54,227 bases of DNA from a virus (IMGVR_UViG_3300032249_000551:1-54227), one strand, 5' to 3'. Positions 6,440 to 21,522 are shown, counted from the stretch's first letter. Numbers and translations are program-made. Notes: generated from the sequence alone by a model not told the origin.

Positions 6440-6479
6440 CGGGTATTCCTTTTCTCGGTAACAGCTACCCTGGAGCCTA

Positions 6480-6758: not shown

Positions 6759-6961
6759 GCTTGCACCGTATGTCCGAAGTCTTCTGAGCATTGCCAGTAT
6801 GACTCTTTAGCCCCAACCGACTTCTTGTTCAAGTTGTACCCAGCGCCTTTGCGAGCAGTAACGCTAGTAACCTTCTTAGGAGTAAACTCTATCTTCTCCA
6901 TAGAGGAACCACATTGAGGACAAGCCTTCTGGTCTTTTCTAAACTCCTCGTTGCGACTCAT
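6755..6961 (-). CDS. Zn-ribbon protein
   Basis: CPQC...WQC....H. Confidence 0.6.
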   Translation of the reverse strand: MSRNEEFRKDQKACPQCGSSMEKIEFTPKKVTSVTARKGAGYNLNKKSVGAKESYWQCSEDFGHTVQA

Positions 6962-7350
6962 TGGCGGCTAAAGTCAATCATGCCACGCATCTGTGACTCT
7001 CGTGAACGAGCAACCCTCTCAGGCATTTCACCACCGACCTTCTTAGCCCAGCTTTCACCTGCCTCTGTCATCAAGTCAGAGTGCTTAGGTGAGATACCTG
7101 CATTTGCTGAGTTGCTTTTAGCGGTGTTCCACAACTTGGTTGCAAGACCCTTGTTACGGTGCTTTGGGTGTGTCTCAAGACCCATCACTTCGCCTTGGTG
7201 GTCTAAGGTCATGTTGGACATCAACTGACCGCTTTTAGAGTCAGACAAAACATAGAAGTGTGGGTGAGCTGGGGTGAACCAGGGGTAGTACTGAATCTTG
7301 TGAGTACCGTCGTCCCAAGACTTAGACTGTGGGCTACTTTGCTCGCTCAA
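6958..7350 (-). CDS. GNAT-family N-acetyltransferase
   Basis: LETHPKHRNKGLATKLW acetyl-CoA-binding motif A; T..G..W C-terminal motif. Confidence 0.75.
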   Translation of the reverse strand: MSEQSSPQSKSWDDGTHKIQYYPWFTPAHPHFYVLSDSKSGQLMSNMTLDHQGEVMGLETHPKHRNKGLATKLWNTAKSNSANAGISPKHSDLMTEAGESWAKKVGGEMPERVARSRESQMRGMIDFSRQ

Positions 7351-7471
7351 CTGGCACCTTCTTTACCTTCTTACGGTTGTACACCTTCTTTGAGGGTACG
7401 GCGCCTGCAGCGTTAGAGCGACGAAGCTCTTGAATACGCTGGACCTTGGATAAGTTGTCTGAAGCAGCCAT
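7334..7471 (-). CDS. Small basic protein (45 aa)
   Basis: MAASDNLSKVQRIQELRRSNAAGAVPSKKVYNRKK...; leaderless TACTAT-6nt-ATG. Confidence 0.6.
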   Translation of the reverse strand: MAASDNLSKVQRIQELRRSNAAGAVPSKKVYNRKKVKKVPVERAK

Positions 7472-7496
7472 GTGCTAATAGTAAGGCTACTGCCTT
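7472..7496 (-). promoter_or_regulatory. Leaderless promoter: AAGGCAGTAGCC box + TACTAT -10
   Basis: Box 14 nt upstream of ATG, same geometry as at 7940-7964. Confidence 0.6.
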
Positions 7497-7519
7497 GTCG
7501 TTACTGGATAAAAAAAATA

Positions 7520-7939
7520 TTAGATACGTCCGCCATCTCGTCCATTTTTGACGTAAGACTCTTTGCTAGGGTCAAACTCAGGAAAACTTCTTTTTATAGC
7601 TTTTAGATTATCATCTTGACCAAGTACTGAGGCGACTTGACCCTTAACTTTGAAAGCTTTGCCCGCAAAGATGGTCTTATCACCATGAGCGTTCTTAGGA
7701 AACTCAGTTCCCTCAGCAGGCTCTACCTCATAGACGTTGCCGTGGTGTACTGGGTACTCGCCACCGTCGTTTGCTCCGTAACCACTAATCACTCTACTTT
7801 GGGCGTGCTTAAGTGCGTAATCTAAATCAGAGGTAGCCCAAGCCGTTCCGTGCTCAGTTCTTGATTTAATAACATCCCCTGGCTTGAGAGTCTCAATGGT
7901 CCCGTGGAAGAGGGCGCTAGAGAGGTTATTCTGACTCAT
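7520..7939 (-). CDS. Arr-like (rifampin ADP-ribosyltransferase fold) ADP-ribosyltransferase
   Basis: LFHGT...LKPGDVI, AWATSDLDYA..HA, GNVYEVEP: motif order of the Arr-type ART fold. Confidence 0.7.
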   Translation of the reverse strand: MSQNNLSSALFHGTIETLKPGDVIKSRTEHGTAWATSDLDYALKHAQSRVISGYGANDGGEYPVHHGNVYEVEPAEGTEFPKNAHGDKTIFAGKAFKVKGQVASVLGQDDNLKAIKRSFPEFDPSKESYVKNGRDGGRI

Positions 7940-7964
7940 AAGCCAATATTACGGCTACTGCCTT
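7940..7964 (-). promoter_or_regulatory. Leaderless promoter: AAGGCAGTAGCC box + TAATAT -10
   Basis: Minus strand AAGGCAGTAGCC-G-TAATAT-TGGCTT-ATG. Confidence 0.6.
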
Positions 7965-8128
7965 ACTCTGTACCCCTCAACCATGGCTGAGCCCTGGGGG
8001 TTCCCTGCGGAAAACACGCTTAACTGTGGGGGTCATTTGTGCCAAAAGATTATTATTTATTAACGATTACATTCACAACTTGTTTCTTAAAGAAGTATTT
8101 ATTGTTCTATCTCCGCATAAATAATTAA

Positions 8129-8592
8129 AATAACTATTGTTTGATAGCAACTTTGATAGCGAGATTAAATAACTATTGGCTACTGCTTATTTTTATCGCA
8201 ATCTTTGTGCGGATACCACCAGACTAAACACCAACTTTGCAAGTTGTAATCAGGTATAAACAACTAACTAAATACATTGTGTATCACTAACTATTTACTA
8301 TGTGATTACAAGTTATGTATTCAATAGTTATGTAAATACATTCATTCATCACACTAATAACTATTCTCTTATCTATCTCTTATTACTTATTCTCTTATGT
8401 ATTTATTACTACTCATTGTTCTTTTGCATAAGGGGGCTACGCCCCCTTGCACCCCCACTCATTCGCAATAGTTATTAGCACTTGCAATCTGCAAACAGAT
8501 AGTTAAAGAAACAACTAACAATAAATAACTATTAACTAATCTTCTTTTACTTGACACTTCAGTTATTCCTGCACCTTCTATTAAATAACTAT
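8129..8592. repeat. Dispersed AATAACTAT repeats in AT-rich non-coding DNA
   Basis: Direct copies at 8129, 8168, 8356, 8524, 8584; inverted ATAGTTAT at 8324 and 8468. Confidence 0.7.
8430..8448. other. GC-rich hairpin AAGGGGGC-TAC-GCCCCCTT in AT-rich DNA
   Basis: Perfect 8-bp inverted repeat followed by GCACCCCC. Confidence 0.75.
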
Positions 8593-8785
8593 CTATAACT
8601 TCTTTTGTATTTGTTTCTTATTTAATTTATCTGTTACTACTTATGTTTATTTATTCTTTTGTTATTACTGAAAATAAATACACAAAATAACTTTGCGTTT
8701 CTTCTTTTGTATCTCTTATCTATCTACGGACAGCGCACCGAATTACTCATAAAAAATTGCGTTATTTATGCGTAAGACACGCGAG

Positions 8786-8815
8786 TTGCAGACCCCTGCC
8801 CCTATCTGTTACGCT
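8786..8815 (+). promoter_or_regulatory. Sigma-A/70-type promoter of the plus-strand block
   Basis: TTGCAG (8786) - 18 bp - TACGCT (8810) with extended TGn; predicted TSS near 8822. Confidence 0.6.
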
Positions 8816-8821
8816 TGCGCC

Positions 8822-9200
8822 AGCAAGTTGCTCTCCCGAATGGGACAGGCGGTTAGCGAAATAAACAAAAGTTAGTTTTGTTTTTTTATTTTGTATGCAA
8901 CGCAATCGTGTGCGTTATTAAATAAAACAAAATAAATAAATACAAACTTCTTTTGTGCAAACTCGCTACGAAATTATTTACTGCTTGTATGTATTACATA
9001 CAACACTTCAAGTGTGCAAGTGGTAAATAAAAATAGAAACTATAAATTGAATGATGTAATAACTACGCAACTGCGACAAACTCAAATGGTTATTACTAAG
9101 TGACATTGTTTCTATCTTGCAAATTATTTAATTACATTCTGCTATTCACTAATTGTTATGAGCGATTAGTGAATAGCGGTGTGCAATTAACTTGCACTAA
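8822..9200 (+). ncRNA. Putative structured leader/ncRNA (about 380 nt, four consecutive long stems)
   Basis: Stems 8854-8968, 8974-9030, 9033-9115 and 9118-9196; the last has a 17-bp core with G-U pairs on the plus strand; no ORF. Confidence 0.6.
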
Positions 9201-9231
9201 CAACTAACAACTAATACGAATGGAGTAACAA

Positions 9232-9621
9232 ATGACAACAACAACTATCGCACCTGTAATCACTAACACAACAACACGACAGACAGATAGAAAACAAAAA
9301 CACACAATTACTTTCAACGATAAGTTTCGTGTGAATGTTACAACTATTCACGACAAAGAACGCAAGGCGTATCGCACTTATGTTTCTGTTGTTACTTTTG
9401 AGATTAGTAACAACTTTGTTATTGAGAAGTCAATCGGTTCTATCTTTGGTGGTTTGTACGCAACTGTTATTCGCACTACGCCATGCAATCGTTTCTCTCA
9501 ATCTTCTTTTGACATTGAGTGTGCAAATGCTCGCAACGATTACAACGCACTTAGCGGTCACTATGAACAACAAATAACTGCACTACTAAACGACAAGGAG
9601 TTACTAAGTGAAACTAATTAA
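9232..9621 (+). CDS. Hypothetical protein, first gene of plus-strand block
   Basis: 129 aa; GGAG RBS preceded by CAACTAA repeats. Confidence 0.8.
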   Translation: MTTTTIAPVITNTTTRQTDRKQKHTITFNDKFRVNVTTIHDKERKAYRTYVSVVTFEISNNFVIEKSIGSIFGGLYATVIRTTPCNRFSQSSFDIECANARNDYNALSGHYEQQITALLNDKELLSETN

Positions 9622-9751
9622 ACGATTACTAATTGCAATCATCTTTATCGTTGTTATTGCTTTCTTGTTTGATGTAACAACACCTGCTGAGTGCAAAAAT
9701 AAATCGGTTGAACAACTATCTCAATTCTGCATTGACCTTCTTTATCCTTAA
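9608..9751 (+). CDS. Small membrane protein (47 aa)
   Basis: GTG start with AAGGAG RBS; MKLIKRLLIAIIFIVVIAFLFDVTTPAECKNKSVEQLSQFCIDLLYP. Confidence 0.65.
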   Translation: MKLIKRLLIAIIFIVVIAFLFDVTTPAECKNKSVEQLSQFCIDLLYP

Positions 9752-9797
9752 TCACTTGCAATCTTCTTTAACAACTAATAAGAAACGGAGTAAATAA

Positions 9798-9911
9798 ATG
9801 TCAGTACCTACCGCAACAATAGATGAACAAGGCGTGACTATTTTCTTTGATGAAGATGTTACTTCTTACTTCCAACTCGTATCGTTACTGAATAAAAAGG
9901 AGAATAAATAA
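9798..9911 (+). CDS. Small hypothetical protein (37 aa)
   Basis: ACGGAG RBS and the shared start-associated motif. Confidence 0.55.
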   Translation: MSVPTATIDEQGVTIFFDEDVTSYFQLVSLLNKKENK

Positions 9912-10172
9912 ATGCGAATTAAAATCGTTAAAGATAATCACCCAAGCAACGAAGAACTAATTACTTCAATGTTAATTGCAATTCAATTCTTAAATCCTGA
10001 ACACGAAAAAGAAGATGTGTTATCGGGTGTCTTGCAATTACTAAGTGAAATCGTTGATAGAAAGAAACTTCTTTTACTTGCAGATAGCGTGTGCAATTCT
10101 GCAAGTAATAAGTTTGATGAAGTTAAATCGCTATACGAAATGTTCCAACTAGACACCGACATAAACAACTAA
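9912..10172 (+). CDS. Hypothetical protein
   Basis: 86 aa, AAGGAG RBS. Confidence 0.7.
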   Translation: MRIKIVKDNHPSNEELITSMLIAIQFLNPEHEKEDVLSGVLQLLSEIVDRKKLLLLADSVCNSASNKFDEVKSLYEMFQLDTDINN

Positions 10173-10197
10173 CAACTAACAGAAACGGAATAAATAA

Positions 10198-11556
10198 ATG
10201 ACATACGCAATTCTTATCTCAGGTCAAGTAAATACAACAGATACAAAGCAAGTAATTATCGCAAGTCATAACGGCAACACTCATACCTTCATGCGTGTAA
10301 CAAATGGTGGTCGTGGTGAAAGTAATTCATGGAGTGCAAGAGAGTTAGATGAACACAACTCAATCGGCACACTTGATTACAACTTAATTGGTGAAGTGCT
10401 ATCAACACCACTAACAAGTGTTGATGAAGTTGCACTTAACAATAACGAGATACCAAATGTTTTAATACAGAAACTTACAAAGCAGTATCGCTTACGCAAT
10501 CTAACAATAGATACAACACGCACTATCCAAAGTGTTGTTGATGAAGTGCAGGTACTAATTGAACAAGACCCTGCACTATTAAGTAAGTATCGCTCTGACG
10601 GCAGAAGCGATAAGCACGCCACAACTAAGACCGAAGGGACAAAACAAATGACACCACGCAACACAATCAACCCAATCGCTAACGAAGCAATAGTGATTAA
10701 CAAAGTAGAACGCAACGATAAAGAAGAACGCACACTTGCGTTCATACCTTCTTTAACAAGTGAAGCGGTACGCACTTATGTACCACGCACTTTCGCTGGC
10801 AACTTAACAGAAGACCAACTCTATACATACGCATTGAAGTCAAAGAAGAATGTATCTATTCAAGGTCATGCAGGTACAGGCAAGACAACTTCTTTAATGA
10901 CATTCTCTGCAAAGAATGGTTTGGAGTTTGGTTCAATGAGTTGTAATGCAGGTGTAGAGCCTTCACAATTCTTTGGTCGTTATGTTCCAAATGCAGAAGG
11001 TAAGTTGGAATGGCGTGACGGATTATTTACGCACTTCTTTCGTAATGGTGGAGTGTTAGTAATTGACGAAGCGAACTTTCTTCCACAGAAAATTGCTTCT
11101 GTATTACATGGTGTTCTTGACGACCGCCGAGTATTAACTTTGTTAGAGCATGACGGCGAAGTTATTACTGCAAATGAAAACTTACTTATCGCTATGTGCT
11201 ACAACGACGGCTACAAAGGTACTTCTAAGTTTAACGAAGCGTTCGCAGACCGCTTTTGGATTAAGTTAAACTTTGAGTACGACACCGACATTGAAAAGAA
11301 GTTTATTCCTTCTAAAACTTTGTTGGAACTTGCAACTTCAATGCGAGCAGACACAATCGCTGGCACTTATGAAACACCTGTATCAACTCGTTTGCTAAAG
11401 CAGTTTGTTGATTTAGCACAGAACCTTAGTTACGACTTTGCAGTTGATAACTTTGTTAATAACTTCCGCGAAGATGAACGCTCTAGCGTGAAACTTCTTT
11501 TGGACTCTCAACGACACAACTTGGAACTAGAACTTATCGGAAAGGTGAGTGAGTGA
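10198..11556 (+). CDS. MoxR/CbbQ/CobS-type AAA+ ATPase
   Basis: Walker A GHAGTGKT, Walker B LVIDEAN, W.DG motif, NEAFADRF, VSTR sensor 2; about 150-aa N-terminal extension. Confidence 0.9.
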   Translation: MTYAILISGQVNTTDTKQVIIASHNGNTHTFMRVTNGGRGESNSWSARELDEHNSIGTLDYNLIGEVLSTPLTSVDEVALNNNEIPNVLIQKLTKQYRLRNLTIDTTRTIQSVVDEVQVLIEQDPALLSKYRSDGRSDKHATTKTEGTKQMTPRNTINPIANEAIVINKVERNDKEERTLAFIPSLTSEAVRTYVPRTFAGNLTEDQLYTYALKSKKNVSIQGHAGTGKTTSLMTFSAKNGLEFGSMSCNAGVEPSQFFGRYVPNAEGKLEWRDGLFTHFFRNGGVLVIDEANFLPQKIASVLHGVLDDRRVLTLLEHDGEVITANENLLIAMCYNDGYKGTSKFNEAFADRFWIKLNFEYDTDIEKKFIPSKTLLELATSMRADTIAGTYETPVSTRLLKQFVDLAQNLSYDFAVDNFVNNFREDERSSVKLLLDSQRHNLELELIGKVSE

Positions 11557-13535
11557 CAATGAGTACCTTCTTTATAGAACAACAAGCAGAACAAGAAAAG
11601 AAGCAAGCACTAAAGCGCAAGCGCGTTGGTGCGTTAGCAGGTGTGTTCTCTAAAACTCTTTCGGTATTAACAACTCACAAAATTAGTGTGAATGTTGTTG
11701 ATAGAAAAGACATTGGCGCACCTGCTTATTCATCTACAAAAGAAGTTTGGTTGAATGTTGCTCACATAAAAGATGACTTCACACCAAATGCAATCGCTAG
11801 TTACAACGGACTTGCGTTCCACGAATTAGCACACTTGCGATTTACTCCACGCAACGGCTCACGACTTGTTCAGAAGATTAAAGATGAACAAGCACAGAAT
11901 GAATTGTGGGAAGCGTTCAACTGTTTAGAAGATAGTCGTATTGAGTTTCTTCTTACAGGTTGGTTGCCTTCTACAAAAGCGTGGCTTGTTGCAACTATGT
12001 GTGACTACTTGCTCTCTGATGAAGAAGCAATAAGTCGTGCGTTCCCACTTGTTTATGGTCGCAAGTATTTACCTGTTGAATTGCGACAACTAGCAAGTGA
12101 CAACTTTATTAAGCCTGAGATACAACAAGAGATAGCAAATGTTATTGACAAATACAATGCGCTATCTCTTGTCGGTAATGAGAATGTTGATGTTGCTTTC
12201 AATCTCATAAAGAAGTTTGCAGAACTACTTAGTGAGTTACCTGCACTTCCACAATCACCACAAAGCGGTGAAGGTGAAGGCACAACAATTACTATCCGTA
12301 TCAAAAGCCCACATGGTCACGAAGGCAGACCAACACAAGGCTACGAGTCAAGTTCTGTGCGCCCTGCAACTAAAGAAGAACAAGAGCGTGCTAAGAAGAA
12401 CGCACAAAAGAATGTTGTTGAAGTAATCATAGATACAACACCAAAAGAAAATACAAAAGAAGATGTGTCCGAAGGGACAAACTCTGATACACCAACACAA
12501 TCAACACCAACACAATCAACACCAAAAGATAATTCTTTTGATGATGATTTTGAGTTTGATGATTTTGATTTTGATGATGATGTTGATGATGATGTTCAAT
12601 CACCTTCTACACCAAAAGAAGGTGGCAAGGGTATCGGTAACGAAGCAGGTAAAACAGGTAGCAACAATCAAGTAACTGATTTACTTAATGACATTCTTTC
12701 TGATGTTGTTAAAGAAGTTAGTAAAGGTATCAACGACATAGCAAAGCAACTCGGTGTTGATACACAACTTGACGGCGGTAACGCTAGAACTCCTAACAAA
12801 GCAGATTACAACGAAGTGCGTATTCCCGAAGAACTATCTTTGCTTGCAAAGAAGTTTGGACTTGAACTAGAACGCTTACAAGCAGAGTATGACCCTGCTT
12901 GGTTAAATGGTGAGCGTTCAGGAAAATTAAATGCAGGTCGTTACTTACGCGGTGACGAATTAGATACTGTGTTTGATGAATGGTCAGAGGGTCGTGATGA
13001 TGTTGTAAGTATTGAAGCGGTTATTCTTTTAGACCGAAGTGGGTCAATGAGTGGTCGTAATGCTGACAACGCTTACAAATCTATGTGGGCAATCAAGAAG
13101 GCACTAGAGCGTGTAGAAGCGCGAACAACTGTTGTTACTTTTGATAGTCGTACCAATCTTCTTTATGGTGCAGATGAAAAAGCAGGTACAACAATCAGAG
13201 ATGCTGGTGCTGACGGCGGTACAAATCCAAACGACTCACTTCTTTATGCAAAGCGTGTTCTTGCAGAGAGCGACAAAGCAATCAAGGTTCTATTCATGAT
13301 TACTGACGGCGCATGGAATACAGAAGAAGGCGAGAAGGCAGTTACAGACATGAAGAACGCAGGTGTTCTTACTTGTCAGGCACTTATCTCTAACTATGCA
13401 CACACCGCAGAGGACTTAGATAACTACCGACATTCTTTTGAGTTAATGACTTCAATGCAATCTGCAAAAGACATTCTCACTCTCGGTAAGAACTTAGTGC
13501 GACTTGCAATCACACGCAATCTAGTTAATGCGTAA
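11553..13535 (+). CDS. VWA-domain protein (CobT-like partner of the AAA+ ATPase) with N-terminal HExxH domain
   Basis: FHELAH and N.LED.RIE; acidic linker; MIDAS DRSGSM, GGT, ITDG. Confidence 0.88.
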   Translation: MTMSTFFIEQQAEQEKKQALKRKRVGALAGVFSKTLSVLTTHKISVNVVDRKDIGAPAYSSTKEVWLNVAHIKDDFTPNAIASYNGLAFHELAHLRFTPRNGSRLVQKIKDEQAQNELWEAFNCLEDSRIEFLLTGWLPSTKAWLVATMCDYLLSDEEAISRAFPLVYGRKYLPVELRQLASDNFIKPEIQQEIANVIDKYNALSLVGNENVDVAFNLIKKFAELLSELPALPQSPQSGEGEGTTITIRIKSPHGHEGRPTQGYESSSVRPATKEEQERAKKNAQKNVVEVIIDTTPKENTKEDVSEGTNSDTPTQSTPTQSTPKDNSFDDDFEFDDFDFDDDVDDDVQSPSTPKEGGKGIGNEAGKTGSNNQVTDLLNDILSDVVKEVSKGINDIAKQLGVDTQLDGGNARTPNKADYNEVRIPEELSLLAKKFGLELERLQAEYDPAWLNGERSGKLNAGRYLRGDELDTVFDEWSEGRDDVVSIEAVILLDRSGSMSGRNADNAYKSMWAIKKALERVEARTTVVTFDSRTNLLYGADEKAGTTIRDAGADGGTNPNDSLLYAKRVLAESDKAIKVLFMITDGAWNTEEGEKAVTDMKNAGVLTCQALISNYAHTAEDLDNYRHSFELMTSMQSAKDILTLGKNLVRLAITRNLVNA

Positions 13536-13540
13536 TCAAA

Positions 13541-13567
13541 TGGGGGCAATCAAATCGGTTGCCCCCA
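13541..13567 (+). terminator. Intergenic stem-loop (terminator or processing/stability hairpin)
   Basis: TGGGGGCAATC-AAATC-GGTTGCCCCCA; no U-tract on the plus strand. Confidence 0.5.
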
Positions 13568-13595
13568 ATAACAAAAACGAAACGGAGTAATACAA

Positions 13596-14177
13596 ATGAA
13601 ACTATCTGAAATTAAATTAAATGGTGAGTATGCAATCGTTCCTTCATGGACATACAACAATAAATCTTCAAGAGATGTAGATACTGTACGAGAGAATGAT
13701 GTTGTTAAAGCAACTATCTATTCACTTGATAAGTATGAGTACGAGCCAAGCAATCGCAAAGACTCACCCAACTTTACAAAAGCACAACAAGGCAATCGTT
13801 CTGTTGGAATTATTGTTAAGGCAGTAGATAACAATGGCAAAGAGTATTACTGGACTTCACGACTTGCAGATGTTATTGCAGAGTGGTCTGTGCTTGAACC
13901 TAAGTGGAACTCTGCAAAGTCTAAAGAAGAAGCAGAGCGACTCTTGCGTGAAGAAGCGCAACGCAAAGAGCGTGAGTTGCGCCGACAAGTAGAAGAAGAA
14001 GTAGAACGCTCTCGCGTATCTGTTGTTGCTACTTCTAAAGACTTGTTAGGAGAACAGACAACTGTTGAAGTAACTACAAATGGTTACGGATTAGATTACA
14101 AAGCAAGTGTAAATCTTTCTCTCAAAGAGTTTGAGTTGTTAATTGAAATGGCGTTCGCTGGTAAGGAGAACTACTAA
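13596..14177 (+). CDS. Hypothetical protein with central coiled coil
   Basis: 193 aa; GAAACGGAG RBS. Confidence 0.8.
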   Translation: MKLSEIKLNGEYAIVPSWTYNNKSSRDVDTVRENDVVKATIYSLDKYEYEPSNRKDSPNFTKAQQGNRSVGIIVKAVDNNGKEYYWTSRLADVIAEWSVLEPKWNSAKSKEEAERLLREEAQRKERELRRQVEEEVERSRVSVVATSKDLLGEQTTVEVTTNGYGLDYKASVNLSLKEFELLIEMAFAGKENY

Positions 14178-14320
14178 TGCAACTGGAACTAACTAACACA
14201 GAAATCGCAGTAATACTTGAAGCGTTAGGTAAGGAGAAGGCTTACCTAAATGCTCATGGTCACAAAGAGTCTGCTCACAAAGTGAGTGACCTTCAATCAA
14301 AGATAAAGAACGGAGAATAA
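14177..14320 (+). CDS. Small hypothetical protein (47 aa)
   Basis: MQLELTNTEIAVILEALG...; TAAGGAG RBS, TAATG coupling. Confidence 0.6.
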   Translation: MQLELTNTEIAVILEALGKEKAYLNAHGHKESAHKVSDLQSKIKNGE

Positions 14321-14321
14321 A

Positions 14322-14717
14322 ATGGGACAAGAACTATTAGAACGCACAGGTTGGGTCAAGAAGCCACGAAAGTATTTTGTTGCTACCAATAGCAAGGGAT
14401 ACAGAGTGATACGCGGTAGCGCAGATAGAGATTACTTCTATTGTGTAATCGCAAAAGAACTTAATGCGTGGGGTTCTATCTATGCCTCATTCTCTGCAAC
14501 AGAACACAACGCAAAGAAGTATTGCAAGACATGGAACAACAGAGAAGCAGACCGCTATGAGGTTGTGAAGTGTGTGCAGGTAACTGCTAAAGAAGTAAGA
14601 GCAATCAAAAAAGAAATTGCTTTAGAAGTAATCAAATACAAAGAAGAACAAGAACGACTACAACAAGAGTCCGCAGGGACAAACCCATGCACAGAATACG
14701 AAAAGGAGAATAACTAA
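14322..14717 (+). CDS. Hypothetical protein
   Basis: 131 aa; ACGGAG RBS. Confidence 0.75.
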   Translation: MGQELLERTGWVKKPRKYFVATNSKGYRVIRGSADRDYFYCVIAKELNAWGSIYASFSATEHNAKKYCKTWNNREADRYEVVKCVQVTAKEVRAIKKEIALEVIKYKEEQERLQQESAGTNPCTEYEKENN

Positions 14718-15424
14718 TGGCAACACTATCTACACACCGCACAGGCGGTGCAAGAGGCGCAAATGGATACGGAGAGTATCAAGTGCGCTATGCAAGTCCT
14801 AAGCAACAAATCTTCTTAAAGACACTACTGGAAACAAAGGCACATTCTTTTGGAGATGTAGATGTCGCAACACTTAATGTGCAAGGTGCTGGAGAACTAA
14901 TCACTAAGTTACTTGCACTACCTAACAAGGCTGGAGTTGTTGTTGCACCAAGTGAGAAGCAACTTTCTTTTGCAAAGTCGCTAACTGAAAAGAAAGAAGG
15001 CGGTGTTGATACTCTCAATCACTATCTACGCAATCGCAAAGTATCTTCTTTAGAAGAACTAGACCGCAAAGATGTGTCAGAGATTATTAACGCATTGAAG
15101 TTTGCAAAAGAAGTTACACCGCCAATCAAGATTACAGAAGTTGGTGCTTACATACTTGACGGAATTGTTTATTCAATCCGACAGAACTCTGAAACAAAGC
15201 GTTGGAGTGTTTGGACTTACTCTGATGTTGCAAAGAAGTATGTACGCAACGACAAAGAGTTTGGTGTTATCTACAAGTTAGATACAACAGACCGCTTAAC
15301 ACTAGAACTTGCTATTAAGTATTCTGCACAGGTTGGTATCTGTGTGCATTGTGGCAAGACCTTAACAGTATTGAAATCTGTTGCTGGTGGTATCGGACCA
15401 ATTTGTTCTAAAAGATACAACTAA
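14717..15424 (+). CDS. DUF6011-like Zn-finger protein
   Basis: C-terminal CVHCGKTLT...S...GIGPIC; two (A/P)S(P/E)KQ helical repeats. Confidence 0.7.
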   Translation: MATLSTHRTGGARGANGYGEYQVRYASPKQQIFLKTLLETKAHSFGDVDVATLNVQGAGELITKLLALPNKAGVVVAPSEKQLSFAKSLTEKKEGGVDTLNHYLRNRKVSSLEELDRKDVSEIINALKFAKEVTPPIKITEVGAYILDGIVYSIRQNSETKRWSVWTYSDVAKKYVRNDKEFGVIYKLDTTDRLTLELAIKYSAQVGICVHCGKTLTVLKSVAGGIGPICSKRYN

Positions 15425-15438
15425 GGAAGGAGTAACAA

Positions 15439-15750
15439 ATGTTAATAAGTGAGTTAAAAGAACTTATAGCAAATTACAAAGATAGTGACTCTGTTGTTGT
15501 TGCGCTATGGGATAAAGAATGTTTCAAGGCGTTAAATACAGAAGCACGAATAGTTACTGACAGAGAGTGGAACTATGTTGCCGAAAACTTTAGCGTGCAA
15601 ATGCACGACCAAATGTTAGGCGCAAGTATTCGCGGAGTGTTAGAAAACAAAATGCAATCAACTGATGAAGCAACAGAAGTGTTTATTGCTGACTTCATGG
15701 AACAGTACCGAACAGGTACAACAGAAGAACAACTATGGGACAAGGAGTAA
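15439..15750 (+). CDS. Hypothetical acidic protein (probable paralog of next gene)
   Basis: AAGGAG RBS; ends EQLWDKE. Confidence 0.75.
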   Translation: MLISELKELIANYKDSDSVVVALWDKECFKALNTEARIVTDREWNYVAENFSVQMHDQMLGASIRGVLENKMQSTDEATEVFIADFMEQYRTGTTEEQLWDKE

Positions 15751-15753
15751 CAA

Positions 15754-16080
15754 ATGAGAACAGTTAAAGAAGTTATAGATTATTTATCCACACTTAATCA
15801 AGACGATAAAATCTGGGCAATCTGGGTTGATAAAGAAGAACTAGCACAGATAATTACAGATACAGAGTACGAAGATGAAAACGGAAATCTACTTGAAGTC
15901 ACACCAAAAGAAATTAGTAATGACTTTCTTGAAGATGTAATGCAAAGCGTAGATAACGCGGAGTATGTGTGGGACAGGTTTTCAGATGAAGTAAGAGATG
16001 AAACAAGGAATAAGTGGGAAAAACTACATGAAAAAATAACCGAAGCAAAAGAAGATACAGACCTATGGGATAAGGAGTAA
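15754..16080 (+). CDS. Hypothetical acidic protein (probable paralog of previous gene)
   Basis: AAGGAG RBS; ends TDLWDKE. Confidence 0.75.
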   Translation: MRTVKEVIDYLSTLNQDDKIWAIWVDKEELAQIITDTEYEDENGNLLEVTPKEISNDFLEDVMQSVDNAEYVWDRFSDEVRDETRNKWEKLHEKITEAKEDTDLWDKE

Positions 16081-16084
16081 GTAA

Positions 16085-16513
16085 ATGACAACACTAGAGG
16101 TACAACAAGAAACGAAAGTAAGTGTAAGTGGCAATCTATCGTTCTATTGTTATGTGACACTAAAAGATAGTGAGCAGATAATCATAGACATTCCCGAAAA
16201 AGAATGGACAGGTGGAACTTACAAATCTACTGGTGTGATAAAGAAGGTTAGGTTAGAACAAATCTGTTACCAATCGGGATACGGAGATAATCCGCAAGTT
16301 TATCTTTACTCAATAGAGTTTCGTGGGTTTAGAAAAGACAAAGGGTTGCGGTACAGAACAGAACGACTACATAGCCCTGACCAAGAAGTGATAGACCAAA
16401 TACCTGATGAGTACCACACTTACGCGAGAGTCGCGTTTGTAAAGAAGGTAGCAGAACTACAAGAAGAACTAACGACTATGACTAATGGGGGAATACAAAT
16501 TGGAAAAAAATAA
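16085..16513 (+). CDS. Hypothetical protein
   Basis: 142 aa; TAAGGAG RBS. Confidence 0.75.
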   Translation: MTTLEVQQETKVSVSGNLSFYCYVTLKDSEQIIIDIPEKEWTGGTYKSTGVIKKVRLEQICYQSGYGDNPQVYLYSIEFRGFRKDKGLRYRTERLHSPDQEVIDQIPDEYHTYARVAFVKKVAELQEELTTMTNGGIQIGKK

Positions 16514-16535
16514 CACAACCGAAGGGACAAAAAGT

Positions 16536-17156
16536 ATGCGACTTACTAAGGGAATGAAACAACACAAAGAACAAATCTTGGTGGGTACAAGAGTACCTAA
16601 ATCAGATTTAACTTTACCAAAAGAAGTTTCAGACATTCTTATTGGACTACCACTAACAGAACGCAAAGCGTATGCAAGCGAGTTGCGTAAGGTTGGTTGG
16701 ACACTTCAATCTTTAGCGACACCGCTAAACCTAACGAGAGAGTCCATTCGTCTTTATACACTTGTGGAACACACAGGAGAAGTGTTAGCAAAGATTAGAC
16801 ACTTACCTATTGTTCAACCGCCTGTTATAGAAGTCTTTGTTGAAAGAGTGAAGCGTGTAAAGCCTGACCCAAAGGTGATAGCGCAACTAAAAGAACTTCA
16901 ACCTAAAGCGTTTATGGTTAGAGGTAAAGGCAAATCCAATCGTGAAGAAGCAGAACTTTATACACGACTTATCTATGAACTAATGGAGAGTGGTGTATCG
17001 GGTTATCGCATAGCAAAAGAACTTGGTGTTACCCATAGTGCGCTGGCGTTTCGTTTAGTGCGTTACGGATACACAACAAGCAACGGAACTTCTCGTTCAT
17101 ACAGACAACTAACACACCGAAAGACAGGAGAGGGAAATGCCGAACTGGTGCAGTAA
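16536..17156 (+). CDS. Double helix-turn-helix DNA-binding protein
   Basis: GWTLQSLATPLNLTRESIR and GVSGYRIAKELGVTHSAL; start reassigned to MRLTKG just after the 13-mer motif. Confidence 0.75.
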   Translation: MRLTKGMKQHKEQILVGTRVPKSDLTLPKEVSDILIGLPLTERKAYASELRKVGWTLQSLATPLNLTRESIRLYTLVEHTGEVLAKIRHLPIVQPPVIEVFVERVKRVKPDPKVIAQLKELQPKAFMVRGKGKSNREEAELYTRLIYELMESGVSGYRIAKELGVTHSALAFRLVRYGYTTSNGTSRSYRQLTHRKTGEGNAELVQ

Positions 17157-17775
17157 CGAATTAAAGATACAAGGTAGTCCTAAAGAACTTTCTAAACTTA
17201 TTAAGAAGGTTCAGATTACTAAAAGTGAAGCAACAGAAAATCATTGTGAGTCTGTGTTCTCTTGTCACAGAGTCATTCCAAGACCACTTGATAAAGAAGA
17301 TGAGTGGTACGAATGGAATGTTGCTAACTGGGGAAGTAAGTGGGACTTAAATGATGTTCGCTTTGACGGAGATGTAGATGATAAAGAAGTTTCTTATTAC
17401 TTTGAGAGTGCTTGGTCGCCTGTTGTACCTGTGATTGAAGCACTAGCAAAAGAGTTTAAGAAACTTTCTTTTACTTATACTTTCTATGAAACTGGTAGTG
17501 ATTACTGGGGCGAATTAGAGTATAAGAAAGGAGAACTGATAAGTGAAGATAGTGGTGATGTAAGTAGCGCAAGTTGCGAACGACTTGAATACTTAATGGG
17601 TAGTCACCACTACTGCGAAGATTGCTACGACCAAATAGAGTGCTACGGAGATAACACCGCAAAACTCTGTGAAGATTGTTTAGCAAAAGAAGATGAAGAA
17701 GATGTTTCTTTATGGGAAGGAGAAACAAGTGACTATCAAGCAAATAAATCTTTTGCAGATGTATCAAGTATCTAA
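17137..17775 (+). CDS. DUF1281/YubB ferredoxin-like domain protein
   Basis: MPNWC.N, WYEWNVANWGSKWD, FESAWSP motifs plus C-terminal CxxC..CxxC. Confidence 0.75.
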   Translation: MPNWCSNELKIQGSPKELSKLIKKVQITKSEATENHCESVFSCHRVIPRPLDKEDEWYEWNVANWGSKWDLNDVRFDGDVDDKEVSYYFESAWSPVVPVIEALAKEFKKLSFTYTFYETGSDYWGELEYKKGELISEDSGDVSSASCERLEYLMGSHHYCEDCYDQIECYGDNTAKLCEDCLAKEDEEDVSLWEGETSDYQANKSFADVSSI

Positions 17776-17968
17776 AGGTATTTATCAAACAAAAGATGAT
17801 TTGTTTCAGATAAAGAAGATAGACAACAAATGGAGTTGGTTCATACGAAGTGGCTCTGCTTGGGTAGCAAAAGACAAAAGACAATACAAAACAAAGTCGT
17901 GGTGCGAAAGGTGCATTGAAGTTGAAAGCGGTTTTGTTTATGATGATGAAACACTATGGGAAGGGTAA
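17729..17968 (+). CDS. Hypothetical protein
   Basis: GTG start after AAGGAG; ends DETLWEG. Confidence 0.6.
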   Translation: MTIKQINLLQMYQVSKGIYQTKDDLFQIKKIDNKWSWFIRSGSAWVAKDKRQYKTKSWCERCIEVESGFVYDDETLWEG

Positions 17969-17975
17969 AAGAAGA

Positions 17976-18164
17976 ATGGCAATTAAGTCGTACAAAGTAG
18001 AACTAACTACCGCGATTGCAGTAACACTAAACAATGACGAACACACCGCTAACAACTTGTGGGAAGTTATTGTAGGTAAAGCAAAAACTCAAATGATAGA
18101 CCAAGACATGAACGACAAGAACTATGTGTTGAAGGTTGTATCCGAAGTTACAGAAAGGGAATAA
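17976..18164 (+). CDS. Hypothetical protein
   Basis: Start reassigned to MAIKSYK. Confidence 0.55.
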   Translation: MAIKSYKVELTTAIAVTLNNDEHTANNLWEVIVGKAKTQMIDQDMNDKNYVLKVVSEVTERE

Positions 18165-18167
18165 AAA

Positions 18168-18341
18168 ATGATTTGCGATTATTGTTTGTCAAAAGAAACA
18201 GAGTTAATCTTCTGTAACTTATGCGAAACACACCAAGATAAAATGTCTAGCCTACTTGTTGTTTGCGCAAATCATAAAGAACTAGGACTAGCAAAAATAA
18301 AAAGGGAAGGAAGAAAAAATGGGAAAGTTATTCATTCGTAA
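18168..18341 (+). CDS. Small Cys-rich Zn-binding protein (57 aa)
   Basis: MICDYC...FCNLC...VCANH; AAGGGA RBS. Confidence 0.55.
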   Translation: MICDYCLSKETELIFCNLCETHQDKMSSLLVVCANHKELGLAKIKREGRKNGKVIHS

Positions 18342-18474
18342 GATTACAGAAGCAGATGAACTATGGTTCTGCGATAACTGTAATCAACAAGGTGTCCGAG
18401 CAAATGGCAAAGACATTGTGAGTGCTAAAGAAGTTGTGATGTGGGTCTGTTACAACTGTGTTGGCAAGGTATGA
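18319..18474 (+). CDS. Small Zn-finger protein (51 aa)
   Basis: WFCDNC...WVCYNC; GGAAGGA RBS. Confidence 0.55.
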   Translation: MGKLFIRKITEADELWFCDNCNQQGVRANGKDIVSAKEVVMWVCYNCVGKV

Positions 18475-18662
18475 AGTGCCAAGAGAAAACTGCTTACCCA
18501 ACTAAATACAAAGCAGAAAAAGCCATGAGTTTGATTTGGAAAAATCATTGGCTAAATAACAATAGAAAGAAACCTTGCGCTACTTACAAATGCGAAATCT
18601 GCGGTAAGTGGCACTTAACAAGCCAAGCCCGAAGGGACAAAACAAATAGCCCAAAGAACTAA
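18471..18662 (+). CDS. Small phage Zn-binding protein (YxCxxCGxWHLTS type)
   Basis: MKC.EK.AY...YKCEICGKWHLTS; ATGA coupling. Confidence 0.7.
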   Translation: MKCQEKTAYPTKYKAEKAMSLIWKNHWLNNNRKKPCATYKCEICGKWHLTSQARRDKTNSPKN

Positions 18663-19230
18663 GACCTGTATTGGTTGTTACAAGGCACTACCACTAACAA
18701 GGTTCAACAAGTATCCGCAAGGCTCATACGGCAGACGAGCAAGGTGTAAGTCGTGCCAAGCAATCCACCGCAAAGGTTCTGCCGATAGAACGGCAAAGCG
18801 TTTAGCGTTGGAGTCACAAGGTAAAAGACAATGTAGCAAGTGCGGAAAGAAGAAAGCCTTATCTTCTTTTCAACTTGCTACCCGCAAAGGCAGAACAAAA
18901 AGCAGAGAAGGTGTCTGCAAATCTTGTGTAAGTGAAAGACAAAAGAACAATCACTTGACTAAAAATCAAGAGATAAGGTTGTTCATCTACAACTACAAAA
19001 GAACTCACCCTTGCCAAGTGTGTGGTGAAACTGATGTAGAGATGTTGGAGTTTGACCACATTCACTCAAAGAAGTTTGACATTAGCAACGGAGTATCTAA
19101 AGGTGTGAGTATGCACTTGCTAAAGAAGGAACTTGCTAAGTGTGTTGTGTTATGTTCCAATCACCACCGCAAGAAAACGCACGCTGAACGCAACACTTGG
19201 TTGCACAGGCTTGCAAAAGAAGAAGCATAA
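18646..19230 (+). CDS. HNH endonuclease with two N-terminal Zn-knuckle repeats; no canonical start for the full-length frame
   Basis: Frame open from 18619; KTCIGC...CKSC and RQCSKC...CKSC, then CQVCG...LEFDH...KCVVLCSNHH; candidate ATA start at 18646. Confidence 0.7.
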   Translation: MAQRTKTCIGCYKALPLTRFNKYPQGSYGRRARCKSCQAIHRKGSADRTAKRLALESQGKRQCSKCGKKKALSSFQLATRKGRTKSREGVCKSCVSERQKNNHLTKNQEIRLFIYNYKRTHPCQVCGETDVEMLEFDHIHSKKFDISNGVSKGVSMHLLKKELAKCVVLCSNHHRKKTHAERNTWLHRLAKEEA

Positions 19231-19242
19231 AGAAACTACATT

Positions 19243-19288
19243 AAAGGGGATAGGTTGCCAACTGGCAATCTATCCCCTTTTTTGTTTT
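19243..19288 (+). terminator. Rho-independent terminator
   Basis: GGGGATAGGTTGCCA/TGGCAATCTATCCCC stem followed by T-tract. Confidence 0.85.
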
Positions 19289-19321
19289 GCCTTCTAAGTT
19301 ACTCGCTGGTAGGTTGTCCTT
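19287..19321 (+). promoter_or_regulatory. Leaderless sigma-A-type promoter of the recombinase
   Basis: TTGCCT - 17 bp - TAGGTT - 6 nt - ATG. Confidence 0.7.
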
Positions 19322-20674
19322 ATGGCTTACGCAATCAAACGCAAAGGGCGATTTACCGCCTATTACCGCCAAGACGGAAAAGTCAAATCCGTAGGCACAT
19401 TCTCATCTAGGGCTAAAGCAATTAACGCTGGATTACTCGCCGAAGAAGGCGAGTTTAATCTAATGCCCGAAAACCAAAAGACATTCAACACTTATTTAGA
19501 GCAATTAGCACTCTCACACGACATCAGAGTAATCACCCGTAAGAATTACATTACCCTGCTAAAGAAGTATGCCCAACCTTCTTTAGGGTCTAAGCGCATC
19601 TCCGCTATCACCAAGAAAGACATAAAGACCCTGTTTGATAATCTCGCAAATCAAGGGATTAGCCCAAGCACAATCTCACACCTAAAGACTTCTTTAGGTT
19701 CTCTATTCAGGCTCGCCGTTGATGATGACGCAATAGCCACAAACCCAACCCACCGCATAAGACTAAGCACGCCCAAGCCAGACCCCACATACACCCTAGA
19801 GCCTAAAGACTTTCAGGCTATCTTAAAGAACTTACCCACAGACGGAAGCCGTCTTTTAGCCCAGTTTCTTGTTGTTAGCGGCTGCCGATACGGAGAAGCC
19901 ACAGAACTTAGAGTCAAGGACTTTAACTTTGAGTCAAAGGAAGTCTATGTCAGACGCACAGTTTCAGATGTAGGCTACGCCTACCAGCCCGCAGGGACAA
20001 AGTCCGAGGGGACAAGATTTCTCATTGTGCCAGCTACCAAGAACGGCAATAAAAGAACTGTTGTTCTGAGCTCAGCTCTAGTATCAGAGATAAAGAAGTT
20101 TGTAAAGGCAAAAGCCTTAGCAAAAGAAGACCTAGTCTTCTCAAAGCACCTGGTTGAGAAGAAGAGTAAAATAGAAAGCCCTATCACAAGCGTAGGGAAG
20201 CCTTACACCATTGGAAGCAGGAGATTCCAACACGCAACGGCGTATTCATACAATGTCGGCGGTTGTAGGTGTGAAGCATGTAAAGAAGCGGTCAGGGAGT
20301 ACCGCAATCACTATAGAAAGGACAAGGGAAAGGGCAAGGTAGAAAGCCTTAGCAAAAGCACTAGCAAAAGCCTTAGCAAAAGCGAAAGCCCTAGCAAAAG
20401 CCTTAGCAAAAGCCTTAGCGAAAGACACCTACCTCGTGACAAGTGGCGAGCCATTTGGAACGAAGCCATCAACAAGTCAGGGATTGGTTGGTACCCCACT
20501 ACTCACGACCTTCGGCACGCTAACGCTACCCAGTTGTTAAAGAACGGGGTAGATGTGCATGAGGTCAAAGAGCGGTTAGGTCACCAGTCAATCGTAACTA
20601 CGGAGAGATACCTGCATCGTATCCGTCACCAGCAGTCAAACGCAGCCGAGGTTGTGAATGACTATTTGGAGTGA
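19322..20674 (+). CDS. Tyrosine recombinase/integrase with inserted Cys-rich module and SLSK repeats
   Basis: Catalytic R (GCRYGE), K (ATKNG), HxxR (HDLRH), H (LGHQ), Y (TERYLH). Confidence 0.92.
   Translation: MAYAIKRKGRFTAYYRQDGKVKSVGTFSSRAKAINAGLLAEEGEFNLMPENQKTFNTYLEQLALSHDIRVITRKNYITLLKKYAQPSLGSKRISAITKKDIKTLFDNLANQGISPSTISHLKTSLGSLFRLAVDDDAIATNPTHRIRLSTPKPDPTYTLEPKDFQAILKNLPTDGSRLLAQFLVVSGCRYGEATELRVKDFNFESKEVYVRRTVSDVGYAYQPAGTKSEGTRFLIVPATKNGNKRTVVLSSALVSEIKKFVKAKALAKEDLVFSKHLVEKKSKIESPITSVGKPYTIGSRRFQHATAYSYNVGGCRCEACKEAVREYRNHYRKDKGKGKVESLSKSTSKSLSKSESPSKSLSKSLSERHLPRDKWRAIWNEAINKSGIGWYPTTHDLRHANATQLLKNGVDVHEVKERLGHQSIVTTERYLHRIRHQQSNAAEVVNDYLE
20343..20424 (+). repeat. Tandem 12-bp repeat (AAAGCCTTAGCA)n, about 6-7 imperfect units
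   Basis: Read directly; related copies at 20108-20126 and 21219-21238. Confidence 0.85.
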
Positions 20675-21207
20675 TTATGAAACTAACAACAAAAGGAAAG
20701 ATAGTGTTTGGGTCGTTGTTTACAGCGATGTTTTTGATGGCAGGAATGTTGGCTTTACCGCCAGCATTTAGCCCAACAAAAGCCGAAGCACAAGCAATAG
20801 AGCAAGAAGCGCAAGAAGATGTACTAACCAAGTATGTCAATGCAGATGATTTAACTGACTCACAGTTAGTAGAGTTACTGCAAGCCGTAGGCTTCAAAGG
20901 TCACGACCTTAAAGAAGCATGGGCTATTGCGAAAAAAGAATCACATGGTAATCCGCTATCACACAACGGTAATCGTAAGACAGGAGACAACTCCTACGGT
21001 CTATTCCAAGTAAACATGCTTGGTTCATTAGGTGATGCAAGGCGAGATAAGTTCAATTTGGCTTCTAATGCTGAACTGTTCAACCCTGTGGTTAATGCCC
21101 AAATCGCTTATCACATGAGCGATGGTGGCACAGATTGGAGCGCATGGAAAGGTACTGAAACTGACGTAGTAAAGCGTTGGTTAAAGAAGTTTCCATCAGA
21201 GCAATAA
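20671..21207 (+). CDS. Secreted/membrane-anchored lysozyme-like lytic transglycosylase
   Basis: N-terminal TM/signal; AIAKKES (catalytic Glu), SYGLFQVN, NP..NA, DWSAW. Confidence 0.85.
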   Translation: MIMKLTTKGKIVFGSLFTAMFLMAGMLALPPAFSPTKAEAQAIEQEAQEDVLTKYVNADDLTDSQLVELLQAVGFKGHDLKEAWAIAKKESHGNPLSHNGNRKTGDNSYGLFQVNMLGSLGDARRDKFNLASNAELFNPVVNAQIAYHMSDGGTDWSAWKGTETDVVKRWLKKFPSEQ

Positions 21208-21252
21208 TCGTAGCCAAAGCAAAAGCCATAGCAAAAGCAGGTGCATAATAGG

Positions 21253-21285
21253 AAGCCCCCTCAGAAATGAGGGGGTTTTCTTTTT
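21253..21285 (+). terminator. Rho-independent terminator
   Basis: GCCCCCTCA-GAAA-TGAGGGGGT + T-tract. Confidence 0.85.
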
Positions 21286-21318
21286 GTGTTACACTCAGAG
21301 CAGGGAAGGGGGTAGTAA

Positions 21319-21477
21319 ATGGCAAAGCACCATGACAAAGTTGCAGCAGCACTAGCAACAAGAATTGCAAATATGCCGAAAGGCGATGGTTACAAGAAGC
21401 CTGGAAGTATGAATCCAAGAAAGACTGGATACATGAGCATTAAGGCTAATGAAGCAAAACGGATTTTAAGTAAGTAA
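21319..21477 (+). CDS. Small basic protein (52 aa)
   Basis: MAKHHDKVAAALATRIANMPKGDGYKKPGSMNPRK...; AAGGGGG RBS. Confidence 0.6.
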   Translation: MAKHHDKVAAALATRIANMPKGDGYKKPGSMNPRKTGYMSIKANEAKRILSK

Positions 21478-21481
21478 AGAT

Positions 21482-21510: not shown

Positions 21511-21522
21511 ATCATTGTACTT

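Follow-up and report, generated by a model that had tools for sequence, protein, structure and literature searches.

A 12-kb block of an uncultured myovirus genome is cleared of restriction-type words and may be the first DNA to enter the host

Why does one segment of a phage genome lack short restriction-type words that are common in the rest of it? This question is raised by the IMG/VR virus contig IMGVR_UViG_3300032249_000551, which was analysed over its whole length of 54,227 bp (the window; classed as linear, estimated completeness 54%). A first-pass annotation had noticed about 12 kb free of several such words, and had proposed that this block enters the cell first and is exposed before protection is set up, similar to the first-step-transfer (FST) region of phage T5. 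We report that the block is under strong, continuing and lineage-specific selection against restriction-type words, that this selection is limited to the block, and that, on balance, we favour its interpretation as first-entering DNA under Type II restriction pressure. The zone in question is:

7994-20031 (12,038 bp): zone without AGCT, ACGT, ATAT, GGCC, CCWGG, GATC, TCGA, CCGG and 60 of the 64 6-bp palindromes (word counts and codon-shuffle null)

Not one of the 466 window sites of the five words AGCT, ACGT, ATAT, GGCC and CCWGG falls within 7994-20031, where 133 are expected from the density outside. The gap coordinates given in the first-pass annotation were all correct: AGCT (155 in the window) is missing from 7655 to 20032, ACGT (132) from 7734 to 21164, ATAT (83) from 7946 to 21371, CCWGG (69) from 7993 to 20149 and GGCC (27) from 6586 to 24393. 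The ATAT gap includes the very AT-rich spacer at the left side of the block, as had been claimed, and AGCT returns at 20032, 20069 and 20074. The "tandem 13-mer" described just before this return (19989-20016) is only a weak imperfect repeat, which Tandem Repeats Finder does not report at score 30.

Composition fails to explain these gaps under either of the two nulls that the first-pass annotation had suggested. In 300 synonymous-codon shuffles of the block genes (the codon-shuffle null), the mean expectation was 31.1 AGCT (minimum 22), 32.2 ACGT (20), 34.3 ATAT (25), 26.4 GATC (18) and 30.3 TCGA (18), and none of these words is found. A second-order Markov model predicts 26.7 AGCT, 30.4 ACGT, 44.7 ATAT and 8.5 GGCC in the block, again with zero observed, while the same words reach 0.38-0.86 of the Markov expectation in the rest of the window. 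When codons were shuffled within single genes, the observed/expected ratio of the five words was 0.00 in 12 of 12 block genes and 0.5-1.5 in flank genes, with 0.61-0.88 just left of the edge and approximately 0.7 in the rest of the window.

The first-pass annotation had caught only a fraction of the purge. Only 24 6-bp palindromes occur in the zone compared to a codon-shuffle mean of 130.2 (minimum 106; ratio 0.19), and they belong to only four of the 64 types, compared to a mean of 44.6 types (minimum 38). The four are TTGCAA (16 copies), TAATTA (6), TCATGA (1) and TGCGCA (1), and the 60 absent types together have 0 copies where 103 are expected. TTGCAA and TAATTA stand at their null expectation (14.1 and 6.1, respectively), and to our knowledge no restriction enzyme recognises either of these hexamers. 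Furthermore, eight non-palindromic 5-mers (merged with their complements) that are common elsewhere are absent where 9-14.5 copies are expected, namely GGATG, GTCTC, CCATC, GAWTC, CASTG, ACSGT, CGATG and GGAGG, with a median observed/expected ratio of 1.01 over the 433 words of this test. Several of them are recognised by Type IIS enzymes. Palindromes with a gap are near normal (0.78 of the null for gap 1, 0.83 for gap 2, 0.94-1.12 for gaps 3-9), and so are mirror repeats (0.94); direct repeats, the other control class, reach 1.22. Hence, the purge hits particular restriction-type words and not palindromes or hairpins in general. Moreover, the untranslated 1.2-kb spacer is purged as well, which indicates that the selection acts on the DNA.

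In addition to this block-limited purge there is a second, genome-wide tier of avoidance. GATC, TCGA and CCGG are scarce in the whole window, as the first-pass annotation had noted (one GATC at 52768, no TCGA, no CCGG), with 106, 62 and 43 copies, respectively, expected outside the block. Two complete relatives, G001 (99,799 bp) and G006 (98,099 bp), entirely lack AGCT, CCGG, CGCG and GATC, and G001 has only two GCGC; the genome-wide avoided word sets thus vary by lineage. As a separate observation, G006 shows a TCGA-free gap of 16.8 kb in its structural-gene region (rotated coordinates 65602-82420; 113 sites genome-wide, mean spacing 867 bp), and G001 has smaller TCGA gaps at 62747-70470 and 82198-88686. 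These gaps may represent a second zone that is free of a single word.

The two complete genomes also define the type of phage. They supply a large terminase, portal, major head protein and tail sheath, which makes the window phage a myovirus of approximately 100 kb. The minus strand of the window encodes ribonucleotide reductase, DNA polymerase A, helicases, a DnaB-type helicase and a baseplate protein, and the only plus-strand operon of the window sits in the site-free zone. Likewise, all large genes of G001 and G006 share one strand with the site-free block as the single exception. The guanine-plus-cytosine (GC) content of the block is 32-41% compared to 41-49% elsewhere.

Is the purge a peculiarity of one contig? 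A probe with the von Willebrand A (VWA) protein of the block retrieved 11 related loci with 54-88% identity. In nine of them, the block is devoid of all five words that are missing from the window block, while L011 and L013 have word sets of their own. G001 and G006 each contain exactly one such block, and in both it starts at the conserved non-coding element that marks the left edge in the window. With this edge element as probe, 32 viral contigs were found, among them 17 true relatives with the full element, and the site density drops at the element in 10 of the 11 element-bearing contigs with enough sequence on both sides. On metagenome contigs, the same probe found relatives at two of the 80 returned loci, one of which is probably a duplicate; these are too few to support statistics on contig ends.

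The forbidden words shift between lineages. L004 also lacks TGCA, L008 lacks CATG, L011 lacks ACGT, AGCT, CATG, GTAC and TGCA, L013 lacks CCGG and GGCC, and G006 lacks GANTC, while the block of G001 tolerates TCGA. The clearest case is TGCA, which has 35 copies in the window and none in L004 over 4.5 kb that align at 90.6% identity. All 35 window sites are altered in L004, by 21 non-synonymous and 15 synonymous changes, and 43 of the 424 mismatches between the two sequences lie within the 140 TGCA columns. In five pairwise comparisons with 424-1,547 substitutions each, we placed the same changes at random, which created 36-113 forbidden words on average and never fewer than 20. The observed number was zero in all five comparisons, and in the flanks of the same genomes sites were gained and lost freely. 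Block and flanks have equal nucleotide identity to close relatives, so the block was inherited vertically with the genome. Taken together, the null models, the conservation, the scatter of substitutions and the equal identity rule out composition and recent import.

Both borders of the block are steps, but they differ in shape, since only on the right does a ramp follow.

20032-24152: ramp with partial depletion (integrase C-terminus, SLT lysozyme, 129-aa open reading frame, ribonucleotide reductase)

From left to right, these four units have observed/expected ratios of 0.49, 0.17, 0.26 and 0.36 (in sum 17 sites vs 49.9 expected), and the three units beyond have 0.64, 0.70 and 0.44. Left of the block, the flank is immediately at full density with 10-19 sites per kb, whereas the first 3-4 kb of the right flank hold only 3-7 sites per kb, in L009, L011 and L013 as well as in the window. 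In G001, the left edges of three frequent words lie within 50 bp (8248-8296), but the same words return on the right at 20233, 23008 and 27022, staggered over 10 kb.

Two non-coding features lie at the left edge:

7950-8330 (approximately 380 bp), no strand: conserved non-coding edge element (alignments of 8 and of 16 relatives)
8040-9231 (1.2 kb), no strand: AT-rich untranslated spacer, GC approximately 32%, many direct and inverted repeats, no open reading frame of note

The edge element contains the motifs GGCTACTGCCT, CCCTCAACC, CCTGG, GTGGGG, ACTTGTTT, TTGTTCTATCT, GTTTGATAGC-N5-TGATAGC and GGCTACTG. It is kept even where the block proteins share only 44-60% identity, as in G001 and L011, it has about the size of a short terminal repeat, and to its left the relatives are unalignable. 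At the left edge, both in the window (7485, 7953, 8178) and in G001 (8168, 8441, 8646), a stretch of 0.5-0.7 kb holds three copies of the motif GGCTACTG on one strand, and each of the two has only one further copy elsewhere; two of the window copies stand 13-14 nt upstream of minus-strand start codons. The motif is probably a site for protein binding or regulation. The spacer is presumed to be the leader and promoter region of the operon. It contains no consensus DnaA box (TTWTNCACA; three in the window vs 8.05 expected), a scan for sigma-70-type promoters was uninformative (three in the spacer vs 9.8 in shuffles), and an Rfam scan of the window, spacer included, gave no family at the gathering threshold.

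Where could the physical end of the genome be located? Megablast of window positions 7000-22000 against a cultured phage collection gave no match, and the best DNA polymerase A (PolA) matches are the cultured Streptomyces phages BRock and LuckySocke (36-37% identity across the Borockvirus group). The large terminase of G001 is 54% identical to those of BRock and LuckySocke over 92% of its length (53-54% across the Borockvirus group), and in tblastx the capsid reaches 60-79% and the portal 62%. The backbone from the gene of a 502-aa protein beside the block to the terminase is collinear, at 24.9-97.2 kb in G001 and 99.2-24.0 kb in LuckySocke. The GenBank records of BRock and LuckySocke contain exact terminal repeats of 221 bp and 344 bp, respectively, and in both phages the only opposite-strand block lies directly inside one physical end and reads inward; in BRock, the end is followed by 0.87 kb of non-coding DNA, gp1-27 at 869-12128 and the convergent remainder. 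A literature search on the genome ends of BRock gave nothing of relevance. This layout matches that of the window phage and, by position alone, would place the physical end at the sharp left edge.

Other hints to genome ends were considered. In run X1, the contig that covers 3810-17377 has a depth of 10.2, the flanks have 10.7 and 11.4 and block-only contigs 4.7-8.0. Depth is thus not doubled over the block, which is a weak argument against a long T5-like terminal repeat since there is only one depth figure per contig. Both G001 and G006 came out of assembly as circles; the 123-bp overlap is the same in the two, but its genome position differs. These 123-bp "terminal repeats" were rejected as assembly overlaps, because that of G001 is situated inside the homologue of a window gene and that of G006 elsewhere in the genome. 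We also noticed that 7 of 18 element-bearing contigs (the 17 true relatives and the borderline L026) end at scattered positions 8-954 nt past the motif, that 39 of 80 contigs with the 502-aa gene end 2.8-6.0 kb beyond this gene on the block side, and that 23 of 38 mappable contig ends (58 independent IMG/VR contigs examined) lie dispersed over about 1 kb at 19,849-20,906. Such pile-ups were rejected as physical ends and interpreted as assembly breaks, because they are scattered and lie at conserved/strain-variable junctions and at a 12-nt tandem repeat (20343-20424).

Our preferred explanation combines these observations as follows. The genome would be linear with fixed ends and the block would be its leading end, with the physical end at or in the conserved element (approximately 7.95-8.3 kb), where a direct terminal repeat some hundreds of bases in length is probable. 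The spacer would hold early promoters, from which the 12-kb operon would be transcribed inward. The block DNA would be naked in the host cytoplasm before any phage-encoded function acts, so that one cut would end the infection; Type II and Type IIS-like enzymes of the host population would then have removed nearly all contiguous 4-6 bp palindromes and several asymmetric 5-mers, and the word set of each lineage would follow the enzymes of its own hosts. The rest of the genome, near normal in sites, would enter later or more slowly, after a block-encoded function has blunted restriction, and the ramp on the right would reflect an exposure that declines with the distance from the end. Of the first-pass proposal that the block enters first and is exposed, the selection against sites has been observed directly, while first entry is backed indirectly by the step at the edge, the inward-reading operon, the ramp and the ends of the cultured relatives.

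Several points weigh against this explanation. BRock and LuckySocke are distant (PolA 37%, terminase 54%) and do not belong to the same genus, the genes of their terminal blocks are not homologous to those of the window block (at most 32 bits), and these terminal blocks show no palindrome purge. We infer the position of the end from synteny, and assembled contigs carry no read starts. The circular assemblies of G001 and G006 fit a collapsed short terminal repeat but would also fit headful packaging with circular permutation, in which there is no fixed leading end. For CCWGG, GGCC and CCGG, the codon-shuffle null expects only 2.9 (minimum 0), 6.5 (minimum 1) and 4.1 (minimum 1) copies in the block, so that their absence from it means little alone. 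The words that are missing genome-wide imply that any protection of late-entering DNA is incomplete. Finally, Pfam and PHROG scans of the block proteins found no known anti-restriction family; no Ocr was found among these proteins, and a search for ArdA gave no match.

The genes of the block itself belong to an operon with clear Shine-Dalgarno sites that reads inward from the left edge. The following features of the operon and of its right-hand neighbours were recognised:

9232-9621, plus strand: first operon gene, 129 aa, isoelectric point (pI) 8.6, no known family; homologues in L005, L006 and L013
10198-11556, plus strand: AAA_5 (MoxR/CobS-like) ATPase (PF07728, E=1.1e-18; phrog_249, E=2.6e-40)
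11553-13535, plus strand: von Willebrand A (CobT-like) protein, 660 aa (PF13519, PF00092)
14717-15424, plus strand: DUF6011 protein (Pfam; phrog_636)
15439-16080, plus strand: two tandem acidic paralogues, 103 and 108 aa, pI 4.4 and 4.2, up to 30% aspartate plus glutamate
16485-17156, plus strand: basic protein with a weak helix-turn-helix match below curated cut-offs
17137-17775, plus strand: acidic protein, pI 4.4, with Api92-like ferredoxin-like domain (DUF1281_C; PF18406, E=1.9e-12)
18808-19230, plus strand: HNH endonuclease (phrog_2255, E=2.3e-29)
19322-20674, plus strand: tyrosine integrase (PF00589, E=2.2e-25), inside which the site-free zone ends at 20031
20671-21207, plus strand: SLT lysozyme, in the operon
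21523-21912, plus strand: 129-aa open reading frame, last of the operon
22035-24152, minus strand: ribonucleotide reductase, convergent to the operon
24234-25742, minus strand: 502-aa protein beside the block, PHROG label queuine tRNA-ribosyltransferase (E=2.4e-57)

For the product of the first gene, the protein atlas gave no usable lead. The VWA gene contains short TGA-rich tandem repeats with periods of 3-27 at 12489-12596, on which contigs of many other organisms pile up, so that the depth of runs X2 and X4 rises sharply at 12338-13004. Both acidic paralogues end with L-W-D-K-E, and the codons of these tails (TGG GAC AAG GAG TAA; 15736-15753 and 16066-16084) double as the Shine-Dalgarno site of the next gene, so that protein and ribosome-site constraints overlap. 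The AlphaFold model of the acidic paralogue has low confidence (predicted local distance difference test 67, predicted template modelling score 0.43) and does not suffice for a fold search. Compared to that of G001, the integrase shows 62% identity in its N-terminal part and 92% in its C-terminal part, a sharp shift from variable to conserved within one gene, and contigs of three runs break at 20008-20022. Between its N-terminal and catalytic parts lies a low-complexity insert (SKSLSKS), encoded by the 12-nt tandem repeat with 7.3 copies at 20343-20424, in which relatives differ by insertions of 6 and 18 nt. Small minus-strand open reading frames that resemble GNAT-type acetyltransferases flank the block on both sides, at 6958-7350 (reaching the Pfam cut-off) and 26238-26546 (below it). 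A tRNA scan found no tRNA gene in the window, whereas there are many in the Borockvirus group.

The 502-aa protein has no match in Pfam, NCBIfam or PDB sequences, and its nearest named atlas cluster is DpdA (score 0.75). It has at least 1,641 homologues, many of them on contigs of 90-105 kb; the best 120 are 73-93% identical, have no Pfam domain and are all named "hypothetical protein" in their sources. Judged from its sequence relatives, it is a highly conserved marker of a phage group that appears to be common. Phages with 7-deazaguanine DNA combine a DpdA/TGT-family transglycosylase with genes for preQ0 synthesis, but no Que-type families were found among the genes next to that of the 502-aa protein.

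If the block enters first, which of its genes could protect the rest? A staged delivery is conceivable, in which the purged 12-15-kb leading segment would be expressed first and would provide the remaining approximately 85 kb with a sequence-independent shield against most restriction enzymes, i.e. a new general anti-restriction mechanism; this extension is a good deal more doubtful than first entry itself. Candidates for the shield would be the pair of MoxR-type ATPase and VWA protein, the acidic paralogues and the Api92-like protein. If it were true, the comparison between words purged only in the block and words purged genome-wide would reveal which host enzymes the shield can and cannot neutralise.

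Among other explanations, entry in the opposite direction deserves attention, although we regard it as unlikely. The DNA would enter leftward as in T5, from an end near the right side of the block (approximately 20-27 kb, perhaps variable), and would halt at the element and spacer as an injection-stop region, with the promoters inside the cell and the operon expressed. T5 indeed has a conserved 1.2-kb untranslated repeat region at the inner border of its FST, for which a role as stop signal has been proposed (10.1101/866236; PMC10644984), comparable to the 1.2-kb spacer and conserved element at the sharp edge beside unalignable flank genes, and a variable right-hand end would equally yield the ramp. 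But the cultured relatives have their end on the promoter side of the block, the spacer lacks DnaA boxes (which fall short in the window as well, three vs eight expected), an end placed near 20 kb would fall within the integrase gene and divide it, and the contig ends there scatter over approximately 1 kb and are explained by the conservation shift and the tandem repeat. Slightly less probable still is that the order of entry is irrelevant, because a covalent DNA modification or a co-injected protein shields everything except the block. The 502-aa gene adjoining the block, with its queuine tRNA-ribosyltransferase label and its DpdA score, would fit such a role. However, neither this protein nor its best 120 homologues have supporting domain matches, sites made of A and T only, such as ATAT, TTTAAA and AATATT, are common outside the block and would gain nothing from a guanine modification, and we know of no mechanism that leaves a single 12-kb segment unmodified. 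It is also improbable, somewhat more so, that the block avoids early nucleases of the phage itself, which would degrade the DNA of the host at a time when the rest of the phage genome is still outside the cell, an idea of Davison published for T5 and its protein A1 (10.1101/866236). The block does encode an HNH endonuclease, and the genome-wide missing GATC, TCGA and CCGG could be self-nuclease sites. Nevertheless, some 60 hexamers, seven tetramers and several 5-mers are too many specificities for a few phage nucleases, word sets that differ between approximately 90% identical relatives are better explained by changing host enzymes, and the idea itself still needs staged entry.

Much lower is the probability that the block is a mosaic import from a lineage with its own history of site avoidance and has no present role as leading segment. 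Its lower GC content and the identity of its proteins to those of G001 (40-64%, compared to 88-92% for right-flank proteins) would be compatible with such an origin, but block and flanks are equally identical to close relatives at the nucleotide level, the block occupies the same position in all relatives, the two complete genomes included, and the selection is ongoing and lineage-specific. As an explanation of the gaps, a side effect of codon usage, amino-acid content or base composition is practically negligible. The low expectations for CCWGG, GGCC and CCGG would be in line with it, but none of the 300 shuffles came near the observed palindromes in number or in types, the Markov model agrees, the non-coding spacer is purged and the control word classes are normal.

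First entry under Type II restriction thus remains our preferred reading, and its implications reach beyond this contig. In T5-like and T7-like phages the first-entry principle is known mostly from single-site experiments, and the block would be its natural extreme, in a different phage group and with sharply bounded 12-15 kb cleared of 60 of the 64 hexamer palindromes. The principle itself turned up in our literature searches, whereas an equally complete regional purge did not, be it in T5, in a myovirus or elsewhere. Word sets that shift between approximately 90% identical relatives make the selection by host restriction enzymes visible in sequence. The purge signature could allow leading ends and early regions of uncultured phages to be located by sequence alone, can point to the recognition sequences that matter in the hosts of such phages, and can single out operons in which new general anti-restriction functions are likely.

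How does the block compare with known systems? In T5-like phages, restriction is reported to act only through sites in the first-step-transfer DNA (PMC10644984). The likeness is considerable: approximately 8-15% of the genome is exposed first and the remainder tolerates many sites, and a conserved untranslated, repeat-rich border of approximately 1.2 kb lies beside poorly conserved genes, as described for T5 (PMC10644984; 10.1101/866236). The window sequence has the same distribution, with sites tolerated in the genome and 0 of 466 five-word sites in the block, and to this extent the comparison of the first-pass annotation holds; it does not extend to doubled depth, DnaA boxes or T5 pre-early families. 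T5 is a siphovirus with the FST in a terminal repeat of approximately 10 kb, whereas the window phage is a myovirus whose relatives have repeats of 221-344 bp, and the injection-stop region of T5 has paired DnaA boxes, which the window spacer lacks. Among the PHROG and Pfam families annotated as the T5 pre-early genes A1, A2 or dmp, none was matched by a protein of the block, in scans that did not use the T5 proteins as queries.

T7 DNA enters from its leading end. The early region of T7 and Murciavirus (Autographiviridae) would resemble the block in that a short terminal repeat is followed by early genes that read inward from the leading end, a layout which for the window we infer from BRock, LuckySocke and the repeat-sized element. 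In this family all genes point with the direction of entry, whereas the window genes beyond the block are on the other strand. T7 has an Ocr-type DNA mimic as first gene, whereas the first gene of the window encodes the 129-aa protein with pI 8.6 and no family. A search for T7-type RNA polymerase (PF00940) in the genomes G000, G001 and G006 gave no match, and control genomes were silent too. Restriction is reported to act in Autographiviridae only through motifs in the first-injected region, an account that concerns Type I motifs (PMC12455610), whereas the targets in the window are Type II palindromes.

The Borockvirus group (BRock, LuckySocke, Alone3, GiJojo and pSt2308) comprises the nearest cultured relatives, with a collinear myovirus backbone and the same order of an end with short repeat, a non-coding leader, a 10-12-kb inward-reading block as the sole one on the opposite strand and a convergent remainder. 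It differs in GC content (53% vs 43%), in its non-homologous block genes and in that its terminal block shows no purge of palindromes. The leading region of conjugative plasmids provides another parallel, since first-entering DNA is described there as enriched in anti-defence genes and, in certain plasmid groups, as depleted of 4-8-bp palindromes (10.1101/2025.04.03.647016). These plasmids enter as single strands by conjugation, and no relaxase or transfer genes were found among the scanned window proteins. Genome-wide avoidance of Type II palindromes has been described as an anti-restriction strategy of phages (Rusinov et al., 2018; PMC6286503), and the window-wide lack of GATC, TCGA and CCGG resembles the avoidance reported there, but the window phage has in addition a second, far deeper tier with a step-like edge, limited to 12-15% of the genome. 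By analogy, the block would work like the FST of T5 or the early region of T7, yet as a member of neither family.

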